This document shows positions 3,746 through 56,131 of a stretch of DNA of 64,000 nt, one piece after another. Each line of letters opens with the position of its first letter. Positions within the stretch are counted from its first letter, which is position 1. The position numbers were made by a program, and so were the translations under genes. The notes beneath the pieces are model-generated. The model did no database searches, was not told where the DNA came from, and was given only the letters and a program-made list of their open reading frames with translations. Origin of the DNA: Octopus vulgaris (Eukaryota). The DNA lies in NCBI GenBank assembly GCA_951406725.2, contig OX597817.1, forward strand, positions 58,032,001 through 58,096,000, written 5' to 3'.

Positions 3746-5301
3746 TGTTTTGCTTAATCATCAAACGGCACATATTTTTAATAATTTTTCTGTAAGACCG
3801 AATACTGCGTTATCAGCCTTGAGAGGTCCTCTCGTATAGGTGTTTTGGGGCATAAAAGCAAACATCGTTCGTGGCAGACGATCAATGTGAGTGTTTTTAT
3901 GCACCAAGCGTCTATATTACAAGGTTGAGCTGGATATAAAGATTAGCTTTTGGTATTAATACCGCTTCCGTTGTTATATCGCAATACTACGCAGTGGCTG
4001 TGTGTGCTACGAAATCCTCGTCGCCACTGTTATGTCGCACGTTCGGATGCCTTCTACTACTCAACTCTACTCCACTCAACTCTCACCGCTACTCAACTGT
4101 TCTAGTGCTCACAGCTGTGTTCGGTTTCTTTATTAGCCACAAGGGCCCAAACATAGAGGGGGACAAACAAGGACAGACAGGAAACCACAGAGGGGACAAT
4201 ACATAGAACGAATATGATGAGATGATTATGCAGTAATGGGGTTATGAATGGCTGCATGCGCCCCTCGTCACATGCATTACCATTAATCTTTTTAAACTGT
4301 CCGTTTTTATCATGTATTTACATAACAATTAATTATCGTCTGCCATTACAATTATTTGAACCGTTATATTTTTCTCTAAAAATGTTCTATTTTCCGATAT
4401 TATTAAACATAACATAAAACGCTCTTTCTTTTTCCTTTTTTTCCTCCTTTTTCTTTTTTCTTTTCTTTTTTCCTGTCGATTTGACATATTTACTTTTTAG
4501 TAATATTTCATTAGTGGTTCAATTTCTGCTAGATCTACTACTGGTGGCAATTCTTTGAATTCCACCCCTACTCCTGGTGGGTTAATATTATCCACACTAC
4601 TCTCACTGCTACTCAACTGTTCTAGTCTACACAGCTGTGTTCCCGACATCTGTGCTTCCTCTATATCTACGTATTGGACTTGCCTACTTCATCGTCTGGG
4701 GGCGTCCACACAACGGTTGTTAATAATTAATTTTCTGGGAGAATTATCTCATCTTATTTGGACTATTTTATTTGCTTCGTTGCCTGAAATATTCACCCTA
4801 CGTTGCTTAACCTTTCGATCAGCCATTTTGTATTGAAGATTTCTATCTCTTGTAATGATACATTGTATTGTAAATTCCCAAGTGTAGAAAAATTGTTGAA
4901 CTTGGATTTATCGCGAGGTATTAAAATGTTATGATTTGATATTTTCTTTCGTATATTGCATGCAGCTTTCCTTTATCTACGGTCGTCTTTAACCGGGGGG
5001 TTTCATAAAATTTACTTTAGCTTGCTTTATGTTGGCTCATAAGCTGTTGTTACTTGTATCGTCAACTTCCGGTTCAGTCACAACAAAATCTCATCGAATT
5101 TTAGTAACACCGGAGTTAAGATTTATTGCCACAGATTTGCTGACACTGTAGGTTATGAGACGTCCAATAATGCTTCTCGGGCCTTACAGGCCAACATCAA
5201 TATCAAAATTTCTATGAGTCGTCCAATACTAACGTTAGCAACATCATTATTATTATTGTTGTTGTTGTTGTTATTATTATTATTATTGAGTGATAGAGCA
5301 G

Positions 5302-5401
5302 NNNNNNNNNNNNNNNNNNNNNNNNNNNNNNNNNNNNNNNNNNNNNNNNNNNNNNNNNNNNNNNNNNNNNNNNNNNNNNNNNNNNNNNNNNNNNNNNNNN
5401 N
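5302..5401. other. Assembly gap (100 N)
   Basis: Run of N of a standard placeholder length. Confidence 0.98.
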
Positions 5402-5685
5402 ACCTTGGGTGGATTTATTTTGTAGTTGCCGTTGTTGTTGTTGTTGTTGTTGCTGATAATGTTATTTTTATTGTTGTTGTTTTTGTTAACATTGCATTCC
5501 ACAGCTTTCTATAGTTCCACAAAACCATTCCAACACCAAATACTTCCACATTGATAATTCCATCAAATTGTTCCACAAGGCAACAAGATGGCCAGAGCAT
5601 TGGTGCGTCGATCAAAAGTAGTTATATCTTGATTCCGCACCAAGAGTTCCTCATCATTCCTTCTTCATTATTACTTTCACATTAG

Positions 5686-5895
5686 GGCGGCGAGCTGGCA
5701 GAATCGTTAGCACGCTGGGCGAAATGCTTGCGATATTTCGCCCGTCGCTCCGTTCTGAGTTCAAATTCCGCCGAGGTCGACTTTGCTGTTCATCCTTTCG
5801 GAGTCGATTAAATAAGTACCAGTTACGCACTGGGGTCGATATAATCGATTTCATCTGTTTGTCTGTCCTTGTTTGTCCTCTCTATGTTTAGCCCC
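5686..5895 (+). mobile_element. tRNA-derived SINE (family A)
   Basis: ggcggcgagctggcagaatcgttagc...gagttcaaattccgccgaggtcgactttg...aagtaccagttacgcactggggtcg. Homologous to copies at 38326, 38650, 50285 and 52063. Confidence 0.85.
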
Positions 5896-6522
5896 TTTTG
5901 TTAACATTGCATTCCACAGCTTTCTATAGTTCCACAAAACCATTCCAACACCAAATAATTCCACATTGATAATTCCATCAAATTGTGTTCTTCAGCAGAA
6001 CACTTTCTTTCACGTTGCTGCAGTAAATGAGTGACCCTACTATGGACTGGTGTCCAGTTCAGGAGAAATCTTGTGATCTCGGTCATTTATATGCTACAGA
6101 AATCAGGAAACCTCGGACTCGGGACAGTAATGACCATGGGTTGATGATAACGTGCCTAATATATCAATATGACCAGTGGTTCTCAGCCGAGGTCCACATA
6201 AACCTTGTGAATGTGTGTGGGGGGATCCATATAAAATTTTGTTGCTAAAATTTATTTTAGGACACAGATAATCCTTTAATCCTTTCATATCTCCGATAAA
6301 CTGGTTTACTTCTGCAGCACACAAAATATTTAAAAAATGTTTAAATACAATTCCTAATTATGTTTAATTATAAATATGCAATATATCTTAAACATCGAAT
6401 GGCTATGAGAACCCATCCGAGTGGAATAAGAATTTTTAAAAATGGTTGAGAACCGCTGATCTAGACTAAAATACGCTACCTTATCGAGTGCCAATGTTTT
6501 CTCATTTTCCCACCCGGTTTAG

Positions 6523-6631
6523 GTATAACGTACATGAGTGGTATATGCAGTGGTAAATATTCCGCATCTGTTGTGAACAGTGGATCTGAAAACCTTGGTA
6601 TTATCACCTCAACCCGCCTCCTGGGGCACAG
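6523..6631 (+). CDS. Internal exon of an ADAMTS/M12B-like gene: active-site helix region (G)ITYMSGICSGKYSASVVNSGSENLGIITSTRLLGH(S), with a degenerate zinc motif
   Basis: Acceptor ttttcccacccggtttAG and donor CAG|gtaatc; 109 nt, phase 1 to 2. The translation follows the reprolysin pattern GxAYxGxIC...SxSVVED...TxAHELGH. Upstream exons were not found in the window. Confidence 0.85.
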
Positions 6632-6984
6632 GTAATCCTTTAATCCGTTCTTTTTTATACATTGTAATAATCTATAATTTATTCTACCACACCCGACACA
6701 CCCAGCGTAAATCTTTTTTTTTATGAGAAACAGTTAGTCAAGACATTCGACAGTATATCGAGTATATATTGCAACAAAATTGTAACGGGTGGATTTTCAT
6801 GTCTACGAACACTTAAACATTTGAATATTATCATATTGCTTCAACAAGTTTGGCCACGTCTGTCAACAGACTGACCGCATTTAAGTGTGTCAGAAACGAT
6901 TCTTTAGATTCTTCGTGATTTTCGAGCCAACTAAAAATATCTCAACTTTCATATTGTGTTCTCTCTTCATTGCGTGTTTTGCAG

Positions 6985-7104
6985 CTTAAGCGCAGGTTAC
7001 GTGGATATACCGGGTTGTACAACAAAGGATGATGGATTTACAGGAGAAACATTTGGTCTGTGTTCTATAAACTCCATAAAAAACAAAATCGAGAAACTAT
7101 CGAG
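6985..7104 (+). CDS. Exon: end of M12B-like domain LSAGYVDIPGCTTKDDGFTGETFGLCSINSIKNKIEKLS
   Basis: Acceptor gtgttttgcAG and donor GAG|gtaagt; 120 nt, phase 2 to 2. Aligns by eye to LGAxHD...C...FSxCS...L at the end of reprolysin domains. Confidence 0.85.
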
Positions 7105-7434
7105 GTAAGTAACATTATACAATACACAATCTCCGGGGTCGTTGTTATTTCCTAATCGATTTTCTTCCGTTGATTTATTGAACAATTTCAAGTTTCATTA
7201 CATCCCAAGTCAGTCATCACTTCAATCAGTCATAGTGTTTTCCCTCATTCCCGATTGTGAATATTTCAGTTTATTTACGTCTTTAACGAACTTCAGAAAA
7301 GAGCAATAAACGTCATATTTTAATTAAATTTTCTTGTACTTTACTATTATAACATCAAATGGTGTGAATCTTCTGTCCGTCCGTCCGTCCTTCCATCCAT
7401 CCATCCATCCATCCATCCATCCATCCATCCATCT

Positions 7435-7490
<56 letters not shown>

Positions 7491-7734
7491 GCACTTATAT
7501 ATATTATATGACAAACAGATATATGTATGTGTGTGTTAGAGTTATGACTTTTCCATAACCTAACAACCCCATACTGCAATTCAGTGAATAATTTCATAAA
7601 AGTCAGGAAACTAACATTTATTTTGCCGTATTTGCAAACAATATCACCCCCAGCTTAAGAAATCGTCCTCGTTATTGGTTTTTTGTATTGTTTATACTTC
7701 TTTTTGGGGTGGTGGGTACTATATATGATAGATC

Positions 7735-7893
7735 GCTAGCCACTACATATTCTTTATTTTCTCTCCTGGTTTCTTTCTGTGGAAGAGCGTAGGCTCGAAA
7801 CGTTAAAGACTTTTTTCACTTCCCGAGCGTTATACTAATACATATGTTTGTTGTCTACATCACCTGTCTTTGTCTTTTGTTTTTTTGTGAATT

Positions 7894-7900
<7 letters not shown>
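7735..7900 (+). mobile_element. Short Penelope-like/retrozyme-like repeat with a hammerhead-like motif
   Basis: Homologous to 33215-33372. Contains tcttt-CTGTGGA-a-gagc-gtag-gctc-GAAA-cgtt-aaaga and ends in (TA)n. Confidence 0.55.
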
Positions 7901-7936
<36 letters not shown>

Positions 7937-8338
7937 TTGTATTTTCTCATAGCTCCCATGGTTACTGAGATAATCTACTATAATAATAATACTCTTGTGT
8001 TTATGAATGGGAAAGGAAGGGGTAATAGATGAATAAGGAAGGAAGGGGTGATGTCATACTTGGTAGTGGGATGATGAAAACTGTACGCAGAAAAAATAAA
8101 TCAAACAGCGTTTCAACTCTGTGTTTGTATGTAAAAGTGAGGTATGTGAATGCGTGTGTGTGTGTGCGTGTGTGTGTGCGTATGTGTGTTTGTGTGTATA
8201 TGTGCGTGTGCGCGCGCAATGGAAGTGGGATGGTTCATCTTTGTTCACTTAGTATTAATGACATGCATGCATACATACAAACATGCATATACATACATAT
8301 ATAAATACATACATACATACATACATACATACATAGTT

Positions 8339-8341
<3 letters not shown>

Positions 8342-8381
<40 letters not shown>

Positions 8382-9397
8382 CACACACATGCACACACGT
8401 GATTATTTCGATTCGTCAGGCTCAGAATCTGAGTCCGACGAATTAGATTGATTTGAGAAGCCTACGAAATCTTACATTGTACGAGACCAAATCAAACTGT
8501 TTAAAATAATACGTAAATACGTAACCCTTACTAAATGTGTTGAGTACCTCTTCCGTTGGTTTGTCCACACACACACACACACACACACGTACATTTCTAC
8601 GTGTATAGATATATACAGGTGCGACTACCCCGCGTCAGCGTAGACCTGTATTAAAGAGGAGGCTCAACACTACTCAAAACCATGAAACTCCTGAACCAGG
8701 GTGCTGCAACCGAATGCAATTTAAAGTCCTACCCAGGACAATCGACGTTAAAGAGTAGATTAGTAAATTCAGAAAATTCAATGATTATTTTGATCGCGAC
8801 AAAGAGATGAAATCTAAAATTTCAGACAAGAAGCTTCCCTTGTCTCTCAGACAAATGGCCTCGTCTGAAAAGTTCGTCTTTTCATTCATTAGGCAAATTA
8901 ATTTATTGCTAGACAGTGATATTCCCATTTTTTTAAACATTGTACATCTATAAGAGATATAATCTCAGGACGAATACCACTGTTAATTTAGCTTTACGGG
9001 ATGTGTCTGCTTTGATTATGATACATTGATTGCTATTTTAAACTAATATTGCTTCTGTTGCGCATAACGAACTTATTGCACTTAGCGAACTTTTTTTCAT
9101 CCTGAAATCAATTTGAAGCCAATGTCTGTAGCAATTGCTGACCGTTTGATGTGATAAATCTGACCTTCAAACTCTTTTTCTGTTTTTAAAATTCTGTGTT
9201 AATTAACCCCTGTGTCAAAGAGACACTGTCAAAATGTCAGCTTTAATTGAAAAAAAACTTGCAGTCAATTTGTTTAAAAGAACAACTTTTACCTTTTAAC
9301 TGAAGCAATAACAATGAAAGTTTTACCTTCTATTAATTCCATCCTCGGCCAGAAGTGTTCCACTCCCTCTCTTCCCACCCTCCCTCTCTCTCTCTCA

Positions 9398-9435
<38 letters not shown>

Positions 9436-9543
9436 CTCTCTCTCTCTCTCATTCTCTTTGTTGGTGTTTATATATTTTAATGAATTTCGACATTCTTTCA
9501 CAGAATAACAAGAACAACAGTAACAACAGCAATAACGATAATG

Positions 9544-9606
<63 letters not shown>

Positions 9607-9687
9607 GGAGGAGGAGGAGGAGGAGAAAAAGAGGAAAAGGAAGAAGAATAGGAAGATGATGATGATGATGATAATGATGATGAAGAA

Positions 9688-9718
<31 letters not shown>

Positions 9719-9906
9719 AAGAAGAAGAAGAAGATTGTACTGATTATTGTTGAGTATATGGGGAACGGTATCAGAAGGTAGAAAGGACATGGGAGTGGAG
9801 TGCCCAGTAGTAAAACGCTTTGTGTCCTTGGCACGGGCAGTATAATCAGGAGAGTATTAGACAGCTGAAAAGAACAGGTAGCATGGTACCGTAGGCTAGA
9901 GATACC

Positions 9907-9961
<55 letters not shown>

Positions 9962-12900
9962 GGAAAACAGTTTAAGGTGGTATATAAAAAAATGCCGTGG
10001 AACAAAAAAATGCCGTGGAACCAATGTCAATACATGTGAATACGTCCGGCATCATCAAAATTGATACTTATGTGGAGAAAAAAAAATTGAAAAGGAAAAA
10101 ATCACAGGAAAAAAATGGCATAAAAAGGGGGGAAACGTATGGTCAGTTTGCATGAGATATGTGTGGCAAAGACATATACAGAATTCCGATGGTTACGGAT
10201 GAGGAGGAGTGACTTGAAGATAGAAATAGAAGCACTTTATATGTGCAGCACAAGAACAATCAATTATGTGAAGTGTTACGGAGATGTACTTGCATAGCAA
10301 GTGACCTGATCTGAGATCATGTGCTGGAACGAAAACAATTGCAGTGTTGAAGGTGTTTATAAGCCATTTAAGAAACACACAAAAACCGTTAGATTCACTT
10401 CAACATTTAAATTTAATTTGCCAAAATATTTTCATCGCTTTCAGACCGCGACCTGTTCACTGACTCGGAATTTTGTCAGTGAACAGGTCGCGGTCTCAAA
10501 TTAAATTTAAATGTTGAATTGAATCTAACGGTTTTTGAGTGTTTCATAAAATGGCTTATAAATACCTTCTACGCTGCAGTTGTTATGTGAAGTGTAGAAA
10601 TGATAAAACAACTAAGAGCAACAAATGCAGAATGTATGGTGAGAGAAGTGTGTTGGTGAATGCCCGAAATTGACACAACGCGAATACGAGAGATGACATG
10701 ACAATGTGGCAAGAATGATCCATTGGGAGCTCTGTGGAAATTATGGCCTGGAAAGACCAAACACATGGTATGACCAAATCCAAGAAAGAGTTACTCAGAA
10801 TGAGAATTGCAAAATCCTGTGGGATGCAATGGTTCAGTGTGATAAACAGATTAAAAATCGGAAACCTGACATTGTTGTGATGAACAGAAAATAAAAAGAA
10901 CATTCTCAGTAAACAGCACGGAGTGTCCTGGTGACAACTGGATTGAAGAGCAAGAAAAAAAGTGAACAACCATGATGAACTGAAGTGGCAAATACGCAGG
11001 TTTTGAGCAATGAAGAGAGTGGACGTGATACCAATAGTGATTGTCACGCTTGGAAGTATCAGAACCCAACGTAACTCAAAAGGATTGGAATGCATGGAAC
11101 ACCTACATTGTTTGGAACTGCAAGAACTCTCCGCTGGGTTCTTGAAGCATTGTCAATAAACAAAGGAGTACTATAGAAGAGTAAGGTTGGTTCTAAAAAC
11201 TTAATTGACTTCCAAGAACCGCATAGAAGCTTTTAACACCCGAGGTATACCTGTTGTAAAATATGGTTCCAATATCAAGTGAAACCTAGATGACTAATAA
11301 AGAATGGACACAAAACCCCAGAAAACTCTTAATTGCCAAGAAAAGGCACCATCCAAAGGCAGTTAAAGACCGCATCTACTCGCCAAGGAGAGAAGGTGGA
11401 GGACGGTTGACCCAACTCGGACTCTCATAAAATATCCACAAATGGTCAGCTGAAGTAGTTAAGCAAGACCAGTTATTGGATGGTGATGTTAGTGAGAGAA
11501 CATGAATCCGAGAAGATGCTCCATTCTGTAAGCAAAGATGGGAAATATAGGATCAGAGTTACACAACGCGGAAATATAAAACAGTAACGAAGCTAATCTA
11601 AGCCAAAACGCTTAGGATGAAAGCAAAAAGCAGGTTTTAAAAGCTTGCAAGACATGTCACCCATTTCAATAATTAGATGTCAATGAGGAAGGCCGATACT
11701 CTCTCATTCTAAATACACAAATTGACACATTTTAAATCTATTATTTTATTGCTGGAATTTTTCTGTTTTATCAACTCGTGTGTTTGTAGATTTGTTTGTT
11801 AATTAATTATTTCTGTCGTGTTTATGGTAGCGAGTTAGCAAGATCATTAACATATCGTACAAAATACTTAGCGACATTTCTTCCGGCTATTTGCATTCTG
11901 AGTTCAAATTCCGCCGAGACTGACTTTGGTTTTCATCTTTTGGAGGTCGAGAACATAAAGCACCAGTGATGTACCGGAGTCGATGTTATTCACTAGCGTC
12001 TTCCCCCTCTAAAATTGCTGGCCTGGTGCCAAAATTAAAAATGATTATGTTTTGCTTAATCATCAAACGGCACATATTTTTAATAATTTTTCTGTAAGAC
12101 CGAATACTGCGTTATCAGCCTTGAGAGGTCCTCTCGTATAGGTGTTTTGGGGCATAAAAGCAAACATCGTTCGTGGCAGACGATCAATGTGAGTGTTTTT
12201 ATGCACCAAGCGTCTATATTACAAGGTTGAGCTGGATATAAAGATTAGCTTTTGGTATTAATACCGCTTCCGTTGTTATATCGCAATACTACGCAGTGGC
12301 TGTGTGTGCTACGAAATCCTCGTCGCCACTGTTATGTCGCACGTTCGGATGCCTTCTACTACTCAACTCTACTCCACTCAACTCTCACCGCTACTCAACT
12401 GTTCTAGTGCTCACAGCTGTGTTCGGTTTCTTTATTAGCCACAAGGGCCCAAACATAGAGGGGGACAAACAAGGACAGACAGGAAACCACAGAGGGGACA
12501 ATACATAGAACGAATATGATGAGATGATTATGCAGTAATGGGGTTATGAATGGCTGCATGCGCCCCTCGTCACATGCATTACCATTAATCTTTTTAAACT
12601 GTCCGTTTTTATCATGTATTTACATAACAATTAATTATCGTCTGCCATTACAATTATTTGAACCGTTATATTTTTCTCTAAAAATGTTCTATTTTCCGAT
12701 ATTATTAAACATAACATAAAGCGCTCTTTCTTTTTCCTTTTTTTCCTCCTTTTTCTTTTTTCTTTTCTTTTTTCCTGTCGATTTGACATATTTACTTTTT
12801 AGTAATATTTCATTAGTGGTTCAATTTCTGCTAGATCTACTACTGGTGGCAATTCTTTGAATTCCACCCCTACTCCTGGTGGGTTAATATTATCCACACT

Positions 12901-13602
12901 ACTCTCACTGCTACTCAACTGTTCTAGTCTACACAGCTGTGTTCCCGACATCTGTGCTTCCTCTATATCTACGTATTGGACTTGCCTACTTCATCGTCTG
13001 GGGGCGTCCACACAACGGTTGTTAATAATTAATTTTCTGGGAGAATTATCTCATCTTATTTGGACTATTTTATTTGCTTCGTTGCCTGAAATATTCACCC
13101 TACGTTGCTTAACCTTTCGATCAGCCATTTTGTATTGAAGATTTCTATCTCTTGTAATGATACATTGTATTGTAAATTCCCAAGTGTAGAAAAATTGTTG
13201 AACTTGGATTTATCGCGAGGTATTAAAATGTTATGATTTGATATTTTCTTTCGTATATTGCATGCAGCTTTCCTTTATCTACGGTCGTCTTTAACCGGGG
13301 GTTTCATAAAATTTACTTTAGCTTGCTTTATGTTGGCTCATAAGCTGTTGTTACTTGTATCGTCAACTTCCGGTTCAGTCACAACAAAATCTCATCGAAT
13401 TTTAGTAACACCGGAGTTAAGATTTATTGCCACAGATTTGCTGACACTGTAGGTTATGAGACGTCCAATAATGCTTCTCGGGCCTTACAGGCCAAGATCA
13501 ATATCAAAATTTCTATGAGTCGTCCAATACTAACGTTAGCAACATCATTATTATTATTGTTGTTGTTGTTGTTATTATTATTATTATTGAGTGATAGAGC
13601 AG
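8342..13602 (+). repeat. Copy B of the duplication
   Basis: See copy A. The offset drifts from 8341 to about 8301 because of microsatellite length differences. Confidence 0.95.
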
Positions 13603-16289: not shown

Positions 16290-16319
16290 CGAACCTCCCC
16301 AAACTGATACGTGCTACAG
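16290..16319 (+). CDS. Candidate 30-nt symmetric micro-exon (S)EPPQTDTCY(S)
   Basis: Acceptor acattgtAG and perfect donor CAG|gtgagt. Phase 2 to 2 and stop-free, so it fits in frame between exons 6985-7104 and 26146-26269. There is no homology support. Confidence 0.4.
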
Positions 16320-22196: not shown

Positions 22197-22250
<54 letters not shown>

Positions 22251-22255
<5 letters not shown>

Positions 22256-22582
22256 TTGGTATAAGATAACAATTTCAGATACTTGTCTTAAACATTCAGA
22301 AATGCAAATTTATAATTCAGATGTATGGCATAAGATATTATTCCATTCAAATAACCATATATTTATGGTAAGACGTAGGTGATAAGACTATAGAAATATA
22401 AGAATATAAACATAAAAAATATTTAAAAAACATAAAAATATATAAGGAGTACCATGAAATTAAAAAATATAGTTAGAATAGATTAAAGGAGGCAAGTGAA
22501 ATTTTTATCTTATACCAAATTAAAATAGTTGTACTATATACTGGAGCCTTATCTCTATTAAAATGCTAGTATTCTCTCCCCC

Positions 22583-22643
<61 letters not shown>

Positions 22644-23081
22644 CGCAGGAGTGGCTGTTTGGTAAGTAGCTTGCTAACCAACCACATGGTTCCGGGTTTA
22701 GTCCCACTGCGTGGCATCTTGGGCAAGTGTCTTCTGCTATAGCCCCGGGCCGACCAATGCCTTGTGAGTAGATTTGGAAACTGAAAGAAGCCTGTCGTAT
22801 ATATGTATATATATATATAAGTGTGTGTGAATATGTTTGTGTGTCTGTGTTTGTTTCCCTAGCATTGCTTGACAACCGATGCTGGTGTGTTTACGTCCCC
22901 GTCACTTAGCGGTTCGGCAAAAGAGACCGATAGAATAAGTACTGGGCTTACAAAGAATAAGTCCCGGGGTCGATTTGCTCGACTAAAGGCGGTGCTCCAG
23001 CATGGCTGCAGTCAAATGGCTGAAACAAGTAAAAAGAGTAAAAAAAAAAGAGTAAAGAGTATATATATATATATATATAGA

Positions 23082-23154
<73 letters not shown>

Positions 23155-23480
23155 GTGGAGAGAATACTAGCATTTTAATAGAGATAAGGCTCCAGTATAT
23201 AGTACAACTATTTTAATTTGGTATAAGATAAAAATTTCACTTGCCTCCTTTAATCTATTCTAACTATATTTTCTAATTTCATGGTACTCCTTATATATTT
23301 TTATGTTTTTTAAATATTTTTTATGTTTATATTCTTATATTTCTATAGTCTTATGACCTACGTCTTACCATAAATATATGGTTATTTGAATGGAATAATA
23401 TCTTATGCCATACATCTGAATTATAAATTTGCATTTCTGAATGTTTAAGACAAGTATCTGAAATTGTTATCTTATACCAA

Positions 23481-23485
<5 letters not shown>
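22251..23485. repeat. Long inverted repeat: ~330-bp arms at 22251-22579 and 23157-23485
   Basis: atgatttggtataagataac...aaatgctagtattctctcc is the near-perfect reverse complement of ggagagaatactagcattt...gttatcttataccaaatcat. Confidence 0.9.
22641..23040 (+). mobile_element. Full-length tRNA-derived SINE (family B)
   Basis: ggcgcaggagtggctgtttggtaag...cactgcgtggcatcttgggcaagtg...gacaaccgatgctggtgtg...gctgaaacaagtaaaaagag. A 3'-part copy is at 23590-23785. Confidence 0.85.
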
Positions 23486-23558
<73 letters not shown>

Positions 23559-46792: not shown

Positions 46793-47526
46793 TTATTATT
46801 GTTGTTGTTGTTGTTGTTGTTGTTAATATCATATTCGCACATCAATCGAATGAGATAAATCCTTTAATGGAAAAGTAATGCTTCAAATCATTCGAAAAAA
46901 TGTTTCTGCGCTCGATCATTTTGGCGATGAAGTTTATCAGGAGGATGTTCAAAACGTTTTCCTTGCCCCATCCCACAAAATTCTTTGTGGGTGCGCTTGC
47001 AATCCCTGCGCTCCCTATTCCCGATCCTGTGCCTGTACACTGTGTATAAATACTGTATACCGTCGCCATACTCTACACTACTTATTTGCAGTCTACATTG
47101 TATACGTATAACATTTATGATATATATAAACCGAGTGTATGTTGCGTATATATCATCATTATACTTTACAGACACTGTTTCTATATTGTTTTAACACTGT
47201 ATAAGTATTATTTATATACTGCTTGTGTATTGTCTATATACTCTCTCCCCGCTCTCTGTTCTGTATAAAATCTGTATCGTTAAAGGATGTTTTATAAATT
47301 TAAAATGATTTAAAAATATGAACATTGACTGAAAAAAGAAAAGGTTTCCACGCAAGTAACATACAATTAATAATTCTAAATAATAAGTATAATTAATAAA
47401 TATAATAAATAAGATATAATTGATAATTTTATTGATAGTGACTTCAAAGTTTCGGCGGTAGATGGCGGCGTCAGTGTGCATCAAAGTGTCTGCTCCATGC
47501 ATTGACGGGATAAGTATAAAATAGAT

Positions 47527-48390
47527 TTCCAGGCGAGATGGTGTTTTTTACTAATGTGCTCTTTCGATAGTTTACTAATTTTGCCATTGATAAATTCGAC
47601 CTCGGCGTTCAAGTAAGCCTCATCAAGATTCTTCCTGGCAGCTATGAGTTGGATCTTCAGTGACTGGGATGGAGAACGGTGGTAAGCTAGTGATATAGAC
47701 TTTAGATGGTTTCTGGCTTCGATGACATTTGGGGAATTAGAAGGTTTGCTCTGGCCCCTACTCTTCCTTTTGGGAAGAGTAGCCAGTGCAACTTCCTCTG
47801 TTGATTTGATGAGGCTGCTGTATACTTCCTCAATGTTCTCAGCATATATTTCAGAAGTAGACAGAGATTGAAATTTGTTATAGACCTCAATAGTAAATTG
47901 TTTGGACATATCGGGGTTAGATAAGACTTCCTCCCAGTCGATCATTTTGATCGGGTGAGGCTTAGTTTTTTTGGATGAGCGAAGACTAAGCTTAACGGTA
48001 GCTGATACAATTCTGTGGTCAGAGCCGACAGAACTAAAGGAAGAGTAGGATCTCGAGTCCTTAACACTATTGCGCCATTTCTTTCGAAAGATGAGGTAGT
48101 CAATTTGTGCCCTATCACCAAGTGGGGACTCAAATGTCCAAAGTTGACCTTTTGGTTTCATAAAAGAATTGTTGGAGGTGTAGAGATTAAATTCCTCCAA
48201 GAAGTCTTTGAGCATTTCTCCGTTCCGATTGGTTTTAGAGTTGAAAGTAAACTTGGTCTCATCGGGTCCTAGTCTAGCATTCAGATCACCAGCTATAACC
48301 AGAAAATTATGGAGAGGTACTTGCTCAATGGTTGAACGAAGGGTTGTATAGAAATTTTCAATTTCGTCTGCCACAGACGAATTATGTGGG
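47527..48390 (-). pseudogene. Inverted AP-endonuclease portion of the LINE ORF
   Basis: GDLNAR, NRNGEML, QIDYLI and SDHR motifs. The frame is open and ends HHLAWK. Confidence 0.9.
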
Positions 48391-50071
48391 AAATCCATCA
48401 AAGACCTATCAGGCAAAAATTCTGGGTCATCAATTAGAATTAAAGGGGGATCAGCTAAGAAGCGTTTAGAAAATTGGTCAACCCATTTTAAAAACCTCCT
48501 TGGGAAGAATGCCAAAATCCCTGATAACCCCACTCTCCCAAGTGTGCCTATATCAGACACGCTGGACATCAACACCTCCCCTTTTACCATATTTGAACTA
48601 ACAGCAGCCACCAAGCAACTAAAAGCCTCGAAAGCATTTGGTCCCGACAACATTCCGGCTGTGATTTGGAAGGATGATAGATTTCACACACTTTTGCTTA
48701 ACCTCTGCAACCACACACTTTCCACCTTTGTCGCTCCAAAGATTTGGCACCAATCTCAAATCATTCCAATACCCAAAAAAGGCGATTTGTCCCTCGTCAC
48801 CAACTACAGGGGCATATCTCTAATGTCAATTGCTGCAAAACTGTACAACAAACTGATCCTAAATCGTCTTGTCCTTTTTGTTGAACCTTTGCTCCGAAAG
48901 AATCAAAATGGATTCAGACATGGGCGCTCAACGCTGAGCCAGATACTATGCCTGCGCAGACTTATTGAAGAATCAAAAGCATTTAATCGCGATCTTGCAA
49001 TGGTATTTGTAGACTTTTCTAAAGCGTTCGATTCTGTAGATAGGTACAAGATGTTTGAAATCCTTAAGCTCTATGGGATACCAGACAAAATTATTTCTGC
49101 CATCAAGGTCCTCTACACAGATACGTCTTCAACCATCTTAACCCCTGATGGAGAAACATCATCTTTCTCGATCGAGGCCGGAATACTGCAGGGAGACACA
49201 CTCGCCCCATTTCTTTTCATCATTGTTGTTGATTATGTGCTACGTATGTCAGTTGATACCATCTTTGGCAAGGGCTTTGAAATAAAACCAAGAAGTTCCA
49301 GACACCCAGCTGAGTACTTGACAGACACTGACTTTGCTGACGACATCGCTCTTATCAGTGATTCTCTCTCCAATGCCCAGTCTCTTTTACAATCTCTTGA
49401 ACAAGCCTCAAATTGTGTAGGTCTTTACCTCAATGAGACCAAAACTGAATACATAAACAAGTGCCTGTCCAACAGTGATTGCATCATCCACACTCTCAAC
49501 AGTGCACCTTTAAATATGGTTTCTGATTATAAATATCTTGGGTCATACAAAAGACTTTCTAACTAGAAAGGGTATGGCCTGGTCAGCCTGTAATGACATG
49601 CATAAGATCTGGTCATCAAATCTAAGTAGGGACTTCAAACTTGAAATATTCAAAGCCACAGTCGAACCAATTCTACTATATGGCTCAGAAACCTGGACGT
49701 TATCAAAGAAGCTTGAGAGGCGGTTGGATGGAACCTACACTCGCCTCCTTATGAGAGCTCAAAATCTCTCGTGGAGGCGCCATCCAACTAAAATGCAAAT
49801 ATATGGGAAATTACCACCTGTGTCATCTCTTGTGAAAGGTAGGAGAGTCCAGTTTGCTGGACATTGTTGTAGAGCTGAAAAAGAAGTAATTTCTACTCTT
49901 CTCCTCTGGAAGCCATCTACTCGCAACACCAGAGGGCGCACACTCTCCTACCCTGATGTAATCTCCAGGGATACAGGCATCCAGCAACAGGACCTCCGTA
50001 ATGCTATGATGGACCGTGAAGTCTGGCGCAACATGGTAAATTCCATTGTCTCGACCACGGTCGAACAATGA
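48389..50071 (+). pseudogene. Reverse-transcriptase portion of the LINE ORF, with one frameshift near 49550
   Basis: KAFGPDNI, NYRGISL, QNGFR, VDFSKAFDSV, GILQGDTLAPFLF, FADD and YKYLGS motifs, then LLYGSETW in the next frame. Confidence 0.92.
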
Positions 50072-55676: not shown

Positions 55677-56131
55677 TACCAAAGCATTTTGGATTCGGTC
55701 CCAACCTCATACAGAGTCGCCTGCATTACCCAATGCATTCGATGAAAGCTGCAGTTGAAGTGGAACAGAGGCGAATTCCAGTGGCCAAGAACAGGTTCAT
55801 CCAAAAGACAAGAATGGCTCTGAGAAGGCCAATGGCTCGATTAAATGTGATGCGGAGTCCCAGGAGAAGAATGTTCGCACCTGTCATGAATCACCAAAGA
55901 ATAAGAAACAAAACAGTTCCACGGTTTCAAGTGAACCAAAATTCACCTCTTGCCCAGGCCCGTAGGCTGGGTAGGTTTGGTTTCTTCCCGAGACCAATGT
56001 ACCCGTTACGTGGGAATTCAAACCAAGGAAGGATGCGACAGATGGATTCAGGTCGGCGTTTCATGGCTGGAAGATGGAGAAGAAGGGAATCAAGATCAGC
56101 AAAGAAGCTTTGGGATGCAAAAAAGCATTAA
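55677..56131 (+). CDS. Probable terminal exon: 151-aa Arg/Met/Pro/Gln-rich basic tail VPKHFGFGPNLIQSR...KKLWDAKKH*
   Basis: Strong acceptor ttttcttctccctttcttccacAG. Phase 1 matches the donor at 37051. It is a 455-nt non-repetitive open frame in AT-rich surroundings. Linkage across the 18.6-kb intron is inferred from phase and composition. Confidence 0.7.

Follow-up and report, generated by a model that had tools for sequence, protein, structure and literature searches.

The locus and its exons

The window, by which is meant the whole analysed stretch of 64,000 nucleotides from Octopus vulgaris, is repeat-rich animal DNA in which the later part of a large split gene lies on the forward strand. 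A search with exon 11 led to a full-length protein of O. bimaculoides whose cluster includes records of O. sinensis, O. vulgaris and Argonauta, and when the O. sinensis record was mapped on the window and the 150 kb upstream of it a gene of 19 exons over about 120 kb was obtained, with GT-AG borders throughout and a frame of 2,613 nt specifying 870 amino acids without an internal stop. The product differs from the O. sinensis record at one residue and from the O. bimaculoides protein at 17. Exons 10-19 are the ten constitutive exons inside the window, and the view taken in a preliminary description of this DNA, that frame and splice sites are kept over ten exons, holds good, as all ten have GT-AG borders and are stop-free; the junctions of exons 12-19 are based on GT-AG sites and on the match to public models.

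Exon 10 (6523..6631, like all the exons below on the + strand) encodes the edge strand (GITYM), a Cys and the active-site helix as far as R-L-L-G-H-S, and exon 11 (6985..7104) continues with LSAGYVD, a Gly at the Met-turn (GGA, 7043-7045), FGLCS and the last helix of the M12B fold. The end of that fold and the start of a disintegrin-like ADAMTS_CR_2 domain are found in exon 12 (26146..26269), the domain running through exon 13 (29543..29647) and ending in exon 14 (31634..31685). There follow two six-Cys repeats, one in exon 15 (32462..32599; CPFGD…CC.SC), which has no Pfam match and was single copy in a genome search, and one in exon 16 (33989..34120; CEYGD…CC.TC), then a Thr-rich, mucin-like stalk in exon 17 (35453..35611), a small basic two-Cys module (CWNPH…KC) with a dibasic KRRK stretch in exon 18 (36875..37051) and, in exon 19 (55677..56131), an Arg-rich tail and the stop, with neither a Pfam nor an Atlas match. 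The tail occupies residues 706-870, has 43 Arg and Lys to 5 Asp and Glu and a pI of about 12, and no homologue of it was found beyond the orthologues. An optional 30-nt microexon (16290..16319, + strand; EPPQTDTCY), adding ten residues including one extra Cys, occurs in isoform X1 of O. sinensis and in one O. bimaculoides model and is skipped in the three RNA-like contigs described below; it lies between the M12B domain and the disintegrin-like domain, and the extra Cys could permit a disulphide-linked form.

The layout of the whole protein is therefore one of a hydrophobic N-terminus (residues 1-25, a putative signal peptide as judged by eye), a prodomain, an M12B domain (about 211-430), ADAMTS_CR_2 (448-508) and the six-Cys repeats (513-600), followed by stalk, two-Cys module and tail. 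Both of the Pfam models to which the preliminary description had pointed exceed their cut-offs on the O. bimaculoides orthologue, namely Reprolysin (PF01421, 30.3 bits against 20.8) and ADAMTS_CR_2 (PF17771, 33.4 bits against 27.3), and for this reason the motif discussed below is not a chance resemblance. The assignment to an ADAMTS or reprolysin-like protein stands in so far as these domains are concerned, but not as to a true ADAMTS, since no thrombospondin repeat (TSP1) was matched at E <=0.1 on any of the three full-length orthologues and the whole 19-exon frame is accounted for. Pfam likewise gave no match on the orthologues to disintegrin proper, EGF or transmembrane segments, the C-terminus being the basic tail. 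The spacing of the two six-Cys repeats resembles that of PLAC, the C-terminal domain of MIG-17; there was no Pfam match to PLAC on two exons or on eight relatives, and a fold search with the Cys repeats gave no match that stood out.

The junction on which the motif depends was looked for in four public runs, compared over 6300-7400, three of them RNA-like (from three studies) and one DNA-like; the RNA label of the runs is a guess supported by the exact skipping of the intron, and contigs drop rare variants. The splice from 6631 to 6985 was found in the contigs of all three RNA-like runs, just as had been claimed, a 353-nt GT..AG intron being skipped exactly and with no base changes. Each of these runs gave one contig of about 3 kb, the loose ends of which continue into the preceding exon and, beyond exon 11, into the exon at 26146. 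The single DNA-like run retains the intron and does not have the junction.

Exons 10 and 11 lie in an 8.3-kb tandem duplication flanking a 100-N gap (5302-5401), the first copy beginning 2.9 kb upstream of the window and ending at 5301 and the second running from 5402 to 13602. The copies are 98.6% identical, with 19 gap openings and 15 mismatches over 8,273 aligned bases, none of the mismatches falling within the 229 exonic bases; the duplication is probably an assembly artefact of uncollapsed haplotypes. A real tandem duplication of the exons was rejected, as a second 229-nt pair shifts the frame and the contigs run through exons 9-10-11-12 once; the models of other species also have exons 10-11 once. 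The likely false duplication accounts for the garbled state of the public model CAI9721044.1, which lacks exon 10, contains a spurious exon from window position 5517 and has exon 11 twice, so that the motif is hidden; it has no Reprolysin match. Several other features of the introns were observed. Two open frames of 404 and 185 amino acids in the last intron (47484-50068, + strand) look by eye like a LINE reverse-transcriptase remnant, and decayed mariner-like transposase was recognised, also by eye, at about 30150-31080, a stretch that recurs, dispersed, 108 kb upstream, and at about 35930-36560. In the long intron 11 a 445-bp inverted repeat (96.9% identical) around a short SINE-like repeat (22199-23537) is a possible RNA-editing substrate.

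The altered active site and activation region

Metzincin catalysis is defined by the zinc-ligand His residues, the catalytic Glu and the residues of the Met-turn. The AG|…|GT-bordered exons 10 and 11 join in frame (…ITSTRLLGHSLSAGYVDIPGC…) to give ITST-RLLGHSLSAGY-VDIPGC, in which the decisive codons are CGC for Arg (6615-17), CTC for Leu (6618-20), CAC for His (6627-29), AGC for Ser (6989-91) and TAC for Tyr (6998-7000). The replacement of the first His by Arg and of the catalytic Glu by Leu, both put forward in the preliminary description, is confirmed by the codons in the genome and in the RNA-like contigs, while the second His is kept and there is no third. The further claim that the third His has become Tyr is correct only if the position is counted from the first His, as the octopod protein has one extra residue between the second His and the Asp; counted back from the Asp the residue is Val, Ile or Ala, and by neither count is it His. 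The Ser reported in place of Gly is present but does not count as damage, since the 131 ligand-intact relatives include 26 that have Ser there, and the ADAMTS consensus as quoted in PMC4448532, HEXXHXBG(/N/S)BXHD, admits G, N or S. That A-to-I editing could not restore the motif proved right codon by codon: no A>G change at CGC, CTC or TAC yields His, Glu and His.

In an alignment of relatives (A4; up to 117 for the motif columns) the first His column is 90% His, the Glu column 93% Glu and the third His column 91% His, and Met occupies the Met-turn column in 94% of 117 relatives, this being the Gly of the octopod protein. No Met occurs from the motif to FGLCS, in agreement with what had been noted. 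The distance from the second His to the FSxC motif is 24 residues, compared with 31-48 (median 39) in 114 relatives, and it follows that about 15 residues have been deleted after the Met-turn and before FGLCS. The VED motif preceding the active-site helix, with Glu in 85% of relatives, is VNS in the octopod protein; the Glu is presumably a Ca ligand. The protein is very probably not a zinc protease.

The activation region has changed as well. Of the two Arg columns of the furin site (RxKR), one has Arg in 90% of 101 relatives and the other in 93% of 106, and all four octopod-clade lineages have NSTKN at these columns, creating tandem N-glycan sequons (Asn194 and Asn198). The only strict furin motif in the octopod protein is at residue 852. 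In a scan of 32 residues a strict motif was missing from 44 of the 142 rows, the four octopod rows among them. Conservation of the prodomain exceeds that of the N-terminal part of the catalytic domain. The prodomain has a single Cys, located away from a conserved Asp (position 144 of P0007; exon 4, upstream of the window) that lies a little ahead of the furin site and is present in 81% of 79 relatives and kept in octopods. In active members this Asp may be a latency switch; a literature search for an Asp latency switch gave no paper on M12B.

An AlphaFold model of the Argonauta orthologue built from a 121-sequence alignment (pLDDT 81.7, pTM 0.67), which replaced a poor earlier one from 11 sequences (pLDDT 48.9), resembles the ADAM17 zymogen over its prodomain and M12B part (Z 24.2, 320 residues, rmsd 4.3), a likeness that may echo the active relatives in its alignment. 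The M12B part by itself matches ADAMTS5 with Z 20.7 over 194 residues (rmsd 2.5), and ADAMTS5, ADAM8 and other M12B domains in general with Z 20-21. As modelled, the M12B fold is kept whilst the catalytic chemistry is lost.

Conservation among octopods and mollusc relatives

An intact HExxH in an orthologue at this position would have told against the reading of the preliminary description, but the RLLGH motif is identical in every one of the four orthologous lineages with sequence there, namely O. sinensis, O. bimaculoides, Argonauta and the transcript P0003, the last being 80% identical overall and more distant than Argonauta. Compared with P0003 as the most distant orthologue, the motif exon is identical at 35 of 37 residues, the next exon at 33 of 39 and the six-Cys repeats at 87 of 88, the other figures being those for the signal peptide (8/25), the prodomain (139/162), the N-terminal part of the M12B domain (105/136), ADAMTS_CR_2 (51/67) and the tail (117/162). 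The second His (His383), Asp391 and the prodomain Asp186 are all conserved in the orthologues. The unevenness of divergence between regions is highly significant (chi-square 86, 11 df, p ~1e-13, at the protein level in place of dN/dS), and such a pattern would not be that of a decaying gene. In trees the octopod clade sits on a long stem, of 0.93-1.83 changes per site depending on the method, and has a short crown, a shape that points to fast change followed by stasis. No orthologue from squid, cuttlefish or Nautilus was found among the taxon-named matches and 22 proteins looked up, most of the 150 matches of one search being without names.

The wider mollusc family includes other proteins with altered sites. 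The 143 relatives covering the whole motif, a count that omits seven rows without the motif and three apparently exon-skipped models, comprise 131 that keep all ligands and 12 (about 8%) that lack ligands. Eleven of the 12 group together as a clade (rows P0016, P0017, P0057, P0065, P0081, P0082, P0087, P0097, P0120, P0123 and P0130), the named members of which are from Crassostrea, Ostrea, Mactra, Dreissena and Sinanodonta; the twelfth is from Solemya. The motifs of the clade of eleven are of the form Q-[EQ]/R-Q…[RS]…[DL], its sister group consists of proteins with active motifs from Haliotis, Lottia and Aplysia, and the clade is probably an ancient bivalve pseudoprotease that is in places annotated as Peptidase M12B. 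No paper on other dead members of the mollusc family was found by literature search. Two further relatives, P0024 and P0031, have intact motifs together with what seems to be a transmembrane segment followed by a cytoplasmic tail, so that the family includes membrane-anchored forms; they are the nearest rows to the octopod clade in one tree, with weak support.

The octopus genome itself has three intronless paralogues in addition to HExxH exons elsewhere. One, C17 (G000:C17, L018:919-2913), is intact, with the same architecture, HELGHSLGVLHD, the Met-turn and RRKR. The other two are without ligands and keep both the Met-turn and RxKR: C24 (G000:C24, L040:677-2683, - strand) encodes 668 amino acids with KMIAQ… and C8 (G000:C8, L041:672-2612, + strand) 646 amino acids with QLIGR…. 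The C-termini of the C24 and C8 proteins are hydrophobic and like GPI signals. Both group with C17, and the whole has the look of a clade of retrocopies in which activity was lost separately.

The relation between these losses was approached with trees, a first one from which five of 157 rows were dropped (<60% cover) and later ones of 49 and 31 hand-picked rows. Grouping of the octopod gene with the dead intronless pair was rejected (p-AU 0.004). The octopod clade stood apart from the bivalve dead clade in all three trees, but a tree that joins the two is not rejected (p-AU 0.29), and one in which the octopod clade is joined to the combined bivalve-dead and gastropod-active clade was 2.4 log units above the quick search, with p-AU 0.60. 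The other dead mollusc proteins mostly lose the second His, whereas the octopod protein keeps it. Met after the motif is kept in all 12 dead database proteins and in both dead intronless genes, and the furin motif in nine of the 10 dead database proteins scored and again in both intronless genes. As far as the sequences indicate, death of the site is recurrent in the mollusc family, and among the cases seen the loss goes furthest in the octopod gene.

Possible role and comparison with known systems

The preliminary description had favoured a functional pseudo-enzyme over a pseudogene, and the intact, spliced and conserved gene agrees with that; the binding or scaffold role attached to it is one that we also infer. 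The reading towards which we lean, with modest confidence, is that of a dead MIG-17/Sona-like M12B protein which is likely to be closed by its prodomain and likely to serve as a secreted matrix adaptor. According to this proposal the protein would be secreted, having a hydrophobic N-terminus and no membrane anchor that could be seen, and the prodomain would not be removed, because NST sequons replace the RxKR of the relatives, but would remain bound to the dead domain in the manner of a zymogen. The conserved surfaces of this closed module and the near-invariant Cys repeats might then bind a protein partner, by analogy with ADAM22 and LGI1, and the Arg-rich tail could, to judge by its charge, anchor the assembly on polyanions, sulphated proteoglycans for instance. 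It is also the case that another protease could cut the prodomain linker, since removal of the MIG-17 prodomain is autocatalytic and takes place without furin. A bolder extension of the adaptor reading, which we regard as doubtful, would see a permanently frozen zymogen, a MIG-17-like protease turned in octopods into a glycan-sealed pro-enzyme fold without a metal site, in which the former cleft region and the Cys repeats form a new, near-invariant binding surface and the Arg-rich tail brings about condensation into a matrix peculiar to cephalopods. Among several independent losses in the mollusc family (octopod, intronless pair, bivalve clade and Solemya) the octopod protein would then be the most dismantled, and the prodomain Asp would be a latency switch of the family.

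Other explanations have to be set beside this. The dead protein might regulate active relatives, binding the substrate, the inhibitor or the prodomain partner of an active paralogue such as C17 and serving as a decoy or competitor. The presence in the genome of the active-motif C17 paralogue with the same architecture and of further HExxH exons would suit such a role, as would the conservation of the exon lining the cleft, one of the highest in the gene, and the regulation of active cousins by pseudopeptidases is described as a pattern in PMC11266112. The C17 paralogue is, however, distant, the grouping with its dead intronless relatives fails as described above, and the cleft has been remodelled by the deletion of about 15 residues and is probably covered by the prodomain, which makes regulation of this kind unlikely. 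We consider it rather unlikely, too, that the protein is a gland secretion of saliva, mucus, egg or adhesive in which the Cys repeats or peptides from the tail are active and the dead domain is a carrier. One M12B gene is reported to be specific to the posterior salivary gland in two octopods (PMC7656900), but that paper names no gene id for it and M12B terms had no match in its supplement. The tail does carry KRRK and RWRR sites and has the high pI already noted, but the only strict furin motif is that at residue 852 and conservation is very high. A typical venom gene is not expected to be so highly conserved. The ink and salivary-gland proteome supplements contained none of the ids tried, and ids may differ between databases.

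A rebuilt enzyme, in which the kept His, the prodomain Asp and a Tyr or Asp bind a metal and support some other or weak activity, would be consistent with the retention of the fold and the conservation of His383, Asp391 and Asp186. It is nevertheless very improbable given the lack of a general-base Glu, of two of the three His ligands and of the Met-turn, the shortened loop, and the Arg at the first His position, which disfavours a cation. That the altered motif is the result of a pseudogene, a sequencing error or mis-splicing, or that editing restores the motif, is scarcely credible: the exons do lie in a duplicated stretch beside a gap and one public model is garbled, but the exons of both copies are identical, the spliced contigs match the genome, the 870-residue frame is open, other species share the motif and no A>G change can restore the codons. 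Roles other than those listed are left with a small share of the probability, and the secreted, prodomain-closed adaptor continues to be the reading that we prefer.

No paper on the octopod gene was found by accession id in full text or by topic, in searches that left subscription journals mostly outside and with transcriptome supplements that may list the gene. A protein of ADAMTS-like type, presumably secreted, in which ligands, Met-turn and activation site have all gone and which is nevertheless strongly conserved brings the secreted branch into the pseudoprotease class, and offers a natural test of how far the metzincin fold can be stripped. More generally, a mollusc family annotated as active 'ADAMTS-like' or 'Peptidase M12B' has some 8% dead members, including a bivalve-wide clade, and readings of mollusc transcriptomes in which all are counted as proteases would be wrong.

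The closest known systems are MIG-17 of C. elegans and Sol narae (Sona) of Drosophila, which consist of a prodomain, M12B and a disintegrin-like/Cys-rich region without TSP1, as does the octopod protein. The best result of an Atlas feature search was the MIG-17 cluster (0.94, with 200 of 256 features shared) and the third was the Sona cluster (0.88); the trees included neither nematode nor insect sequences, so the likeness is one of architecture and features. By these features the octopod protein is a MIG-17/Sona-like, TSP-less combination of M12B and ADAMTS_CR_2 and not a true ADAMTS. MIG-17 and Sona are described in PMC4989167 as secreted, TSP-less relatives of ADAMTS, Sona depending in vivo on its catalytic Glu and MIG-17 losing its prodomain autocatalytically, without furin. 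By comparison, the octopod protein lacks the Glu, has a single His and no Met-turn, and carries in addition the Thr-rich stalk and Arg-rich tail.

Vertebrate ADAMTS proteins (ADAMTS13, 1, 4 and 5) share ADAMTS_CR_2 with the octopod protein, and the best PDB sequence match is to ADAMTS13 (E 6e-8, residues 325-508), with ADAMTS1 and ADAMTS5 the best Foldseek matches. All ADAMTS are predicted to be active and carry a furin site, according to PMC4448532, which puts the dead ADAMs at eight of the 21 in man; unlike ADAMTS, the octopod protein has neither TSP1 nor an active motif nor a furin site at the end of its prodomain. The dead ADAMs provide the other comparison. The pseudopeptidases listed in PMC11266112, ADAM2, 7, 11, 18, 22, 23, 29 and 32 and UNC-71 of C. 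elegans, have an M12B domain with replaced ligands and general base that serves in binding, and the octopod M12B domain appears equally dead; the octopod model matches ADAM22 with Z 20.2 over 192 residues. ADAM22 binds LGI1 by a surface of its dead domain and not by the pseudo-active site (PMC11266112). As far as that account goes, ADAM pseudopeptidases are membrane-anchored and typically retain the Met-turn, the Met being present in all nine listed, whereas in the octopod protein no membrane anchor was seen, the Met-turn and the loop next to it are lost and the prodomain is apparently retained. Dead M12B domains are thus already known in ADAMs, and what is new here is one in a presumably secreted, MIG-17-like protein in which the Met-turn and the activation site have been lost too.
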